From positions 109,115 through 173,114 of the forward strand of contig CAVRXV010000001.1 in NCBI GenBank assembly GCA_963725255.1: 64,000 bases of DNA, read 5' to 3'. This DNA comes from an uncultured Gammaproteobacteria bacterium (GTDB lineage Bacteria; Pseudomonadota; Gammaproteobacteria; JAIEPX01). Made by a program: the position numbers and the translations under genes. This document shows positions 11,134 through 11,892 of the stretch, piece by piece (position 1 is the stretch's first letter; each line of letters opens with the position of its first letter). The notes below the pieces were generated by a model that did not search any database, was not told the DNA's origin, and was given only the letters and a program-made list of their open reading frames with translations.

Positions 11134-11170
11134 ATCAATTGAGGCCAGGCATGCACCTCTCACATGTGAC
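11134..11170. repeat. Direct repeat DR1 (native pyrG-kdsA intergenic sequence)
   Basis: atcaattgaggccaggcatgcacctctcacatgtgac aligns with DR2 at 11769-11804 at about 30 of 37 positions. Confidence 0.7.
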
Positions 11171-11374
11171 GCCGTTATGTATAACTTTCCTACTAAGTGA
11201 TGTCTGAATAGTACTTGTTATCAATAATGATTATTGTCTTTTTTTGGAATTTTTTCATCAAATAGTTTAATTAGTAGTGCCTGTTATTTTTCCAAAATAT
11301 TTTCGGAGCTGCTCCTTATAGTATGACTACAGTTAGATTAGAGAAAGCCTCATCAGCTTGAAGTTTCGCTTGTT

Positions 11375-11611
11375 TTAATTTTCATCTGCTAGACATGAAA
11401 GAGCTTTGTTGTATGCAATAAGATAATTTTCGTAATGCTGCATTAATTCTCTATCATCAGATAATAGATTTCGCACCAACGATGAGCCGCTGTTTTTAGT
11501 AAGATTTGGAGTATCGACTGAAAGGTCATTAAGAGAGCGGGAAGTCGCGATAACAGACTGTTTGAGTGAACTTGCATTTGAAAATAGGCTGAATAATCTT
11601 TTATTAATCAT
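11375..11611 (-). CDS. Hypothetical 78-aa protein
   Basis: ORF only, with no recognisable motif. It lies in the 0.6-kb segment bounded by DR1 and DR2. Confidence 0.3.
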   Translation of the reverse strand: MINKRLFSLFSNASSLKQSVIATSRSLNDLSVDTPNLTKNSGSSLVRNLLSDDRELMQHYENYLIAYNKALSCLADEN

Positions 11612-11768
11612 AATTTATGTCCTTGTAATAATATGTAATTTATTTTGTTTGGGAATATGAAGAGCAATACAAAGTTGAGCATAGTTGAAGTTACTATCAA
11701 TATCAAAAGGTGATCTTACGTTTCCATTAACAGCAGGCGCAATAATAATCGAAATAAAGTGACGAGAT

Positions 11769-11804
11769 ATCAAATCGAGACCAGCCATGCACCCCTCACA
11801 TGAC
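11769..11804. repeat. Direct repeat DR2 (copy of DR1)
   Basis: atcaaatcgagaccagccatgcacccctcacatgac. It lies immediately downstream (minus sense) of the relic pyrG 3' end. Confidence 0.7.
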
Positions 11805-11811
11805 GGGGTCT

Positions 11812-11892
11812 CTACCCCATTTTAACTTCTATTTTCTGGTGTTGTGTCTTGCACGCATTCACGAAGCTGATAAAAAGAGGATGTCCATCGCG
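11812..11892 (-). pseudogene. pyrG: Relic 3' end of pyrG (26 codons + stop), displaced by insertion
   Basis: Minus-strand translation gives [26 protein letters not shown]. The intact pyrG C-terminus is [28 protein letters not shown]. The first 44 nt differ at 2 positions from 15917-15960. Confidence 0.85.

Follow-up and report, generated by a model that had tools for sequence, protein, structure and literature searches.

Integrative islands and cis-mobilizable elements (CIMEs) are found at the 3′ ends of genes, as exemplified by ICESt1 and ICESt3 at fda. In Legionella- and Coxiella-like bacteria, effector islets, i.e., AT-rich and lineage-specific genes coding for proteins with eukaryote-like domains, lie between core genes, vary among close relatives and are exchanged via recombination of their flanks. 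Homology-facilitated illegitimate recombination (HFIR) occurs in Acinetobacter, Streptococcus pneumoniae, and Pseudomonas stutzeri. In Escherichia coli, the single-crossover integration of DNA with one homologous arm gave target duplications of 109–950 bp (PMC3240628). This report focuses on the region between pyrG and kdsA in a 64,000-nucleotide stretch of DNA (hereafter the window, to which all positions refer unless another contig is named) from an uncultured Legionella/Coxiella-like bacterium, where nested insertions, one of them bearing a large ankyrin-repeat gene, are accompanied by duplicated pieces of the pyrG-kdsA junction.

The genes pyrG, kdsA, eno, ftsB, and ispD form a conserved gammaproteobacterial gene row, and the 4.7 kb that separate pyrG from kdsA in the source genome (G000, a metagenome-assembled genome (MAG) of 2.8 Mb that is 90% complete) are therefore an anomaly. 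On the minus strand, the order is pyrG, a 240-nt AT-rich flank, the ankyrin open reading frame (ORF), a 189-nt spacer, a second pyrG 3′ end, a palindrome, a direct repeat (DR2), a 0.6-kb segment, a second direct repeat (DR1) and kdsA, after which come eno, ftsB, and ispD. Both bordering genes are intact: pyrG (15875–17524, minus strand) codes for a CTP synthase of 549 aa (Pfam CTP_synth_N, 5e-127, and GATase), and kdsA (10267–11097, minus strand) for a protein of 276 aa (Pfam DAHP_synth_1, 2.8e-73). Orthologues of pyrG were sought in 41 relatives, 39 of which have one, and the locus was compared with that of five other species of the genus (G001 to G005) and with Logan contigs from other runs (L044 to L050). 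Two of these contigs, L049 and L050, present an empty site in which the pyrG stop codon TGA overlaps DR-homologous sequence and the kdsA ATG follows 64 nt on, and a further empty site occurs in G003, where ~20 nt separate the pyrG stop from the kdsA ATG. Judged by these alleles, the 4.7 kb are insertions into a conserved pyrG-kdsA junction, as the first-pass annotation of the window had proposed, and none of the relatives lacks the ankyrin gene while carrying both pyrG tails and both DR copies. Since the L049/L050 spacer is homologous to the DRs, the DR is the native pyrG-kdsA spacer of the sub-clade, and of its two copies DR1 is the one that still adjoins kdsA.

The cargo is accompanied by two distinct pairs of direct repeats. 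The first, designated repeat 1, is made of two copies of the pyrG 3′ end. A repeat search matched 11840–11893 with 15909–15962 (54 nt, 89%), and a local alignment delimited a 45-nt core, found on the minus strand at 15918–15962 within the intact pyrG (copy 1; 54 nt if extended to 15909) and at 11849–11893 in the relic (copy 2). The two cores are 43/45 identical, both mismatches being synonymous third positions (GTA/GTG and TGT/TGC), in line with the 44 nt and two differences first counted. Likewise, the second pyrG tail with its own stop was recovered as first read, at 11812–11893 and with the same peptide, its stop codon occupying 11812–11814. After the core, the intact gene ends with tail A (15875–15917, minus strand) and the relic with tail B (11812–11848, minus strand; TQHQKIEVKMG and a stop). 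Homology begins abruptly at ACGCGATGG. In shuffle tests, similarity was insignificant upstream of this point (p 0.42), between the DNA of tails A and B (p 0.54) and downstream of the two stop codons (p 0.95), and repeat 1 is therefore a sharply bounded block of 45–54 nt. The divergence of the DNA after the core had been correctly recognized in the first-pass annotation; the claim that the peptides nevertheless stay alignable is borne out for K-S/T-Q alone.

The second pair is the duplicated spacer, which was also reported at the outset. The repeat search matched 11137–11166 with 11773–11802 (30 nt, 87%, 26/30 matches), and a gapped alignment stretches the pair to ~50 nt, with DR1 at 11117–11166 and DR2 at 11755–11802, both on the minus strand. 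The divergence between DR1 and DR2 amounts to 13–20% from the outset of what is visible. DR2 is homologous to the L050 spacer that abuts the pyrG stop and to the G001 spacer just upstream of kdsA. The same collapsed GGGGT..ACCCC palindrome occurs at the same place in both DR copies; at DR2 it is a 14-nt palindrome, GGGGTAGAGACCCC (11805–11818), left over from a hairpin repeat of the GGGGTCA...TGACCCC type, which G001 has in full length at the same position. In the relic and DR2, the pyrG end, the hairpin remnant, and the spacer follow one another as in the native locus, and DR1 runs on into kdsA; on either side of the insert there is a copy of a locus segment, and one of these copies continues into the native downstream DNA, as expected of a Campbell-type or HFIR insertion. 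The pyrG 3′-end copies lie 4069 nt apart and the spacer copies 636 nt apart. The remaining direct-repeat families of the 5.3-kb region reach 71–88% over 16–31 nt, and no further copy of repeat 1, DR1, DR2, or the relic was found in the 2.8-Mb genome. No core is common to the three copies of the junction: copies 1 and 2 share pyrG coding sequence only, copies 2 and 3 share the hairpin and spacer only, and the other comparisons gave p 0.2–0.95. An extension of the relic upstream of ACGCGATGG, a homology between the A and B tails, and a third pyrG-tail remnant before DR1 were each considered and rejected, none being significant in shuffle tests. Promoter and terminator sites are no more numerous than in shuffled sequence, and the DR is therefore given no regulatory role. 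An Rfam search of 10.9–16.1 kb returned nothing credible, and scanning JGI metagenomes for the DR core pattern returned 8 matches, none related to the pyrG-kdsA locus.

The same architecture is found in a strain conspecific with G001 (hereafter the other strain), which is known from the contigs L044, L045, L046, and L048. L045 runs from the ankyrin 3′ end through the relic, DR2, the 0.6-kb segment and DR1 into kdsA; L046 has the same start and breaks off in the segment, L044 covers the stretch from the relic into kdsA, and L048 that from pyrG into the ankyrin 5′ end. Since four independent Logan contigs share this architecture, misassembly of the relic, a concern raised in the first-pass annotation, is excluded. 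The pyrG of the other strain is 99–100% identical to that of G001 over the first ~1500 nt and 93.5% identical to that of G000, and it switches from the G001-type to the G000-type tail at alignment positions 1605–1609, i.e., at the end of the 45-nt core. At the other border, kdsA is identical to that of G001 at 519 of 520 positions, DR1 differs from the G001 spacer at seven sites and is of the G000 type, and the switch back lies ~20 nt before the kdsA ATG; G000 itself is without 8 nt of DR1 (GACCCCGT) that the other strain has kept. Given switch points at the core end and near kdsA, tail A to DR1 form one haplotype. The tail switch agrees with the early suggestion that the insert carries a replacement 3′ end for its target, and tail A is accordingly a replacement C-terminus belonging to the inserted haplotype. 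The block is missing from the G001 MAG, in which pyrG has a tail of its own and both a TwoAYGGAY-like element and a hairpin of full length are present instead. From this comparison, the 4.7-kb block is a presence/absence polymorphism within the G001 species, with its borders at the outer edges of the two repeats. Identity between G000 and the other strain is 88–97% by segment within the block and similar in the flanks (pyrG, 93.5%; kdsA, 90.7%), which fits either descent from a common ancestor or a transfer long ago.

The explanation favored here over site-specific integration, with a confidence that stands at the midpoint of the scale, is recombination of the Campbell/HFIR type, homologous on one side and illegitimate on the other. 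Two cargo segments would have entered the pyrG-kdsA junction successively, in the common ancestor of the G000 and G001 species or by transfer between them: first, the 0.6-kb segment with a small orphan gene, and second, the single-gene segment with the ankyrin gene. Each segment would have arrived on the DNA of a related bacterium already carrying the cargo beside its own copy of the locus. One end would have recombined homologously in pyrG and the other would have joined illegitimately within the recipient locus; this route would amount to HFIR or, equivalently, to a single Campbell-type crossover involving a circularised fragment. The recipient would have kept its own copies, namely the spacer as DR1 and the core with tail B as the relic, and the donor would have supplied second, diverged copies, namely DR2 and the core with tail A. 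Since the two repeats differ in sequence, crossovers at arbitrary homologous stretches fit, rather than one att site. An intact ComEC ORF is present in the genome, as far as its sequence tells. Nothing suggests that the block is self-mobile today, and it now behaves like an allele under ordinary homologous exchange.

Several observations weigh against recombination of the Campbell/HFIR type. ComEC is widespread, being found in 10 of 14 control genomes. No lineage that could be the donor, with a native pyrG ending in tail A, was found among the relatives compared, and the ankyrin gene is without a homologue anywhere searched. Microhomology at the proposed illegitimate joints lacks statistical support: TACC..GAAT near the joint at 11894 and GAAGTTA-like strings at three joints do not exceed shuffled sequence. 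At 45 nt and ~50 nt, the homologies are close to the shortest that RecA-dependent exchange can use. The cargo must already adjoin pyrG in the donor, which leaves the very first insertion unexplained. Finally, a replacement gene tail and a sharp 5′ boundary like that of repeat 1 are likewise what an integrase would leave behind.

This last point belongs to the alternative that survives best, that of decayed site-specific integrative islands, which is unlikely although far from negligible. On this account, an integrase-bearing element would have entered the pyrG 3′ end, giving attL and attR and a new tail, a second element would have entered the spacer, and the integrases would later have been deleted, leaving CIME-like remnants. 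The repeats that involve the target gene 3′ end, with the replacement tail and sharp 5′ edge, speak for it, as do the empty sites of L049/L050 and G003, the haplotype border at the core end and an atypical GC content. The GC content of the ankyrin gene is 33.0% versus 38.8% for the genome, which places it among the lowest 2.2% of ORFs with 300 aa or more, and the GC-skew comparison that had been advised gave values near zero or positive in the insert and clearly negative in the flanking minus-strand genes. However, no integrase or transposase was found by Pfam among the ORFs of 11.1–15.9 kb, as the first-pass annotation had noted, and no recombinase or transposase was found in any of seven spacer alleles (G001 to G005 and the Logan contigs included), nor an integrase in the gmk, ftsQ, and C18 inserts. 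Across the 90%-complete assembly, PF00589 (Phage_integrase) has one match, on another contig (C9:224625–225176). Moreover, the repeats share no core, so that two specificities would be needed, and the same core expected of a tandem array was not observed; repeat lengths at other loci range from 36 to 214 nt with no shared motif, and the cargo is a single gene of ~4 kb. With no recombinase in seven alleles, no common core and a scar that recurs at gmk, the attL/attR-like integrase mechanism first put forward is not upheld. The single PF00589 match is in itself an unusually low count, a loose first look having scored only 6 candidates; most bacteria have XerC and XerD.

The history of the pyrG tails bears on whether a donor was involved at all. 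The first six codons of tail B, KTQHQK, match the pyrG tail of G003 with six differences, all of them synonymous, and tail B was therefore at one time the end of a functional pyrG. G001, G002, and L050 have in common a third tail type (KTQQA...KNTAY), and neither tail A nor tail B is usual for the clade, which fits an origin of tails A and B as alleles from other lineages. In the other strain, 7 additional changes, all of them derived on that branch, have altered conserved residues of the relic core and broken the peptide, and the relic is therefore without protein constraint. There, the relic core differs from the strain's own pyrG at 10/45 sites; the relic core of G000 is 43/45 identical to the live gene, and the contrast of 7 relic changes versus 0 between the lineages has p ~0.008 under equal rates. 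Gene conversion may thus keep the G000 relic core close to the live pyrG. Tails A and B are unrelated after the core, and their status as donor or recipient alleles is blurred by the age of the event and by gene conversion.

Duplication in place would dispense with a donor copy: slippage or unequal exchange would have copied the pyrG end and the spacer, and foreign DNA would have been inserted later, or the copies would have diverged. This explanation is improbable. Among the cores of all lineages, the G000 relic core is nearest to its own pyrG (2 differences), and the same collapsed hairpin occupies the same position in both spacer copies, as a local duplication would have it. Against this, the tails diverge completely right after a nearly identical core, and tail B bears a signature of purifying selection relative to G003. 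The relic core of the other strain is 10/45 off its own pyrG, and the similarity in G000 is better read as later gene conversion. Duplication in place also gives no source for the cargo.

The pyrG locus is not isolated in this genome. The gmk-rpoZ locus bears the same scar, a 4.26-kb G000-specific insert with four orphan ORFs located between gmk and rpoZ-spoT (C12:66733–72044) and flanked by the last 43 nt of gmk (67305–67347 versus 71609–71651) plus a 119-nt, 98%-identical repeat; the site is empty in G001, G002, G003, and G004. A 3′-end relic of ftsQ (214 nt, 98% identical, C4:262720–262933 versus 269595–269808) lies 6.9 kb downstream of ftsQ, with five ORFs in between, including an ANK protein and a weak deaminase-like match. 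The DNA after this relic is unlike what follows ftsQ in G001, which makes a further rearrangement likely. At glmM, a 125-nt repeat that is 97.6% identical starts just after the stop codon and begins with a GGCGTCGCG-type repeat end. The cargo at these three loci consists of orphan, ANK, or WD40 proteins, and no mobility genes were found in the scanned gmk and ftsQ inserts. One ORF of the gmk insert was considered as the C-terminus of an IS91-type transposase, a resemblance that Pfam did not support.

It is conceivable, if quite unlikely, that the Dot/Icm lineage gains effector genes as integrase-free, single-gene “knock-ins” behind housekeeping genes, with scars at pyrG, gmk, and possibly ftsQ and glmM. 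The short 3′ end of a housekeeping gene carried by incoming DNA would be captured at that gene, the frame would be kept by the donor-borne tail, and a relic tail would be left behind. If true, this route would account for the entry of foreign genes into essential operons that stay intact. There is a slimmer chance that an unrecognised dedicated cassette-insertion system, maybe linked to abundant small repeats of the genome such as the GGCGTCGCGTCTTGAG-type ends with their Y1 transposase or the GGGGTCA hairpins, places effector genes behind housekeeping genes and copies the gene end in doing so. The scar does recur, and its cargo at several loci is effector-like (ANK, WD40); moreover, both spacer copies contain hairpin remnants, and the glmM repeat starts with a GGCGTCGCG end. 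However, the similarity of the DRs to this repeat end is insignificant (no nhmmer match, and a score at about the 99th percentile of the background), the gmk and ftsQ relics are without such an end, and repeat lengths and positions vary by locus. That the DR might be a degenerate GGCGTCGCGTCTTGAG repeat end, of a TIRYT-like family of the genus, was examined and set aside: collinear GGCGT, TGTGAGAGGT and AATTTGATA blocks are suggestive, but nhmmer and the background scan were unsupportive. True copies of the GGCGTCGCGTCTTGAG family were placed by nhmmer at 43364–43501 and 44355–44376, not at DR1 or DR2, whose alignment score was 21–22. Genome-wide, about 100–135 GGCGTCGCGTCTTGAGTTGTGAGAGG ends, with the end GGCGTCGCGTCTTGAGTTGTGAGAGGTTTTG, were counted (1–8 matches in shuffled genomes); the GGCGTCGCGTCTTGAGTTGTGAGAGGTTTTG ends often occur in inverted pairs 220–250 nt apart, in the manner of miniature inverted-repeat transposable elements (MITEs), and sometimes solo at gene 3′ ends. 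Insertion by a transposon, an insertion sequence or a MITE was rejected as well: the strongest inverted pair, of 16 nt, falls within the ancestral ankyrin ORF and is no better than chance, and the duplications measure 45–54 and ~50 nt, not 2–14 bp. Finally, chance similarity or an assembly artefact is extremely improbable, even for a MAG, given that four contigs from other runs reproduce the order and that 43/45 and 26/30 matches are far beyond the region's other repeat families.

The cargo of the outer insertion is an orphan ankyrin-repeat gene of 1183 aa (12083–15634, minus strand), whose only Pfam matches are to ANK (residues 745–837) and whose 5′ flank (15635–15874, minus strand; GC 31.7%) is 91% identical in the other strain. 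Neither the genus nor GTDB species genomes nor a set of 5.8 billion proteins yielded a full-length relative of the protein, the only matches being to ANK repeats. DotH/IcmK is encoded in the genome (E 4e-92), and the ankyrin protein may reasonably be taken as a candidate substrate of the Dot/Icm (type IVB) system. The 1183-aa ORF reported at the outset is present, but it is frameshifted near 12119 and longer in the other strain. An extra C in G000 (TTCC versus TTC, within 12115–12123) causes a +1 frameshift relative to the other strain, where the ORF reads on to about 11932, 38 nt before the relic. The frameshifted remainder, the last ~53 codons (11932–12123, minus strand), is continuous with the gene in the other strain. 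The extra C reflects either a recent frameshift or an error in the MAG consensus. These cut-off codons stay open and conserved in another frame.

The inner 0.6-kb insert (SEG; 11171–11754, minus strand) contains a 78-aa ORF at 11375–11611. The ORF was seen from the beginning, but it is in reality a copy of a 129-aa orphan gene, intact in L047, that is truncated here by a 1-nt deletion; a different lesion leaves 103 aa of it in the other strain. In L047, the inner segment continues into another gene where G000 has DR1, and the inner insert was therefore once larger. The 129-aa protein forms a single 90% cluster in the homologue search, and a paralogue of the extra L047 gene, with 39% identity, lies elsewhere in G001. 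Over its first 236 nt, the small ORF (11375–11611) is 99.2% identical between G000 and the other strain and ~96% identical to L047; the non-coding DNA beside it is 83–88% identical, the core flanks are 91–94% identical, and the 3′ part of the gene is decaying independently in both lineages. The conservation of the 5′ part points to a recent exchange or a strong constraint at the nucleotide level.

The junction is variable throughout the genus, and seven different alleles of this one spacer were seen. Besides the empty sites, the pyrG-kdsA spacer measures ~236 bp in G002, ~316 bp in G001, ~750 bp in G005, where it includes one ORF, and ~2.6 kb in G004, where it includes several. One ORF of the G004 spacer is 65% identical to the G005 ORF and inverted relative to it, which is further evidence of repeated remodelling of the spacer. 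This ORF of ~140–150 aa (MSFSSLHSESD...) lies at L033:3844–4296 in G004 and at L006:368–790 in G005, in the orientation of pyrG in G005 and in the opposite one in G004. Flanking direct repeats are absent from the G001, G004, and G005 inserts, and none occurs at the G002 cargo either. Taken together, the alleles indicate that the pyrG-kdsA junction of the genus is probably a recombination hotspot.

The G001 and G002 spacers also carry a TwoAYGGAY-like element. In these two and in L047, a hairpin element of ~170 nt directly follows the pyrG stop and scores 42 bits against the Rfam TwoAYGGAY RNA (RF01731; gathering score 43, E 2e-5). Its coordinates in the G001 spacer are L031:12369–12490, and it occurs in G002 on L032. 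It is not at the pyrG-kdsA site in G000, L050, or G003; as its presence varies by lineage, it behaves as a mobile or dispensable element at this site. Partial copies are found elsewhere in G000 (C8:64683–64786, C17:363084–363159, and C4:230418–230504).

The event at pyrG is an ordinary, known kind of recombination scar, not an active or new mobile element. The locus offers an unusually readable history of lineage-specific genes slotted, in an intracellular bacterium rich in effectors, into a conserved essential row without breaking it, it identifies the ankyrin gene as accessory cargo of recent acquisition, and it is a warning that not every duplicated gene end is an integrase att site. As in HFIR and in single-crossover integration of the Campbell type, the latter described in E. 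coli (PMC3240628), foreign DNA is joined beside a homologous anchor, the target is present in two copies of arbitrary length, and mobility genes are absent; here, however, the repeats are short (45–54 and ~50 nt) and already diverged, and the event is ancient and reconstructed from sequence alone. Islands and CIMEs of the ICESt1/ICESt3 type share with the locus the repeats at gene 3′ ends, the element-borne tail, the tandem or nested accretion and the integrase-less remnants, and differ from it in that no integrase occurs here in any allele, the two repeats are unlike and the cargo is a single gene. The glmM locus of the same genome likewise combines a housekeeping gene end with direct repeats of local sequence, but its repeat starts with a GGCGTCGCG-type end and is 97.6% identical, whereas at pyrG two events are nested, a coding tail has been displaced, and the polymorphism lies within a single species. 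Lastly, effector islets are usually without flanking duplications, like the G001, G004, and G005 alleles, whereas the G000 allele keeps the scars of its formation.

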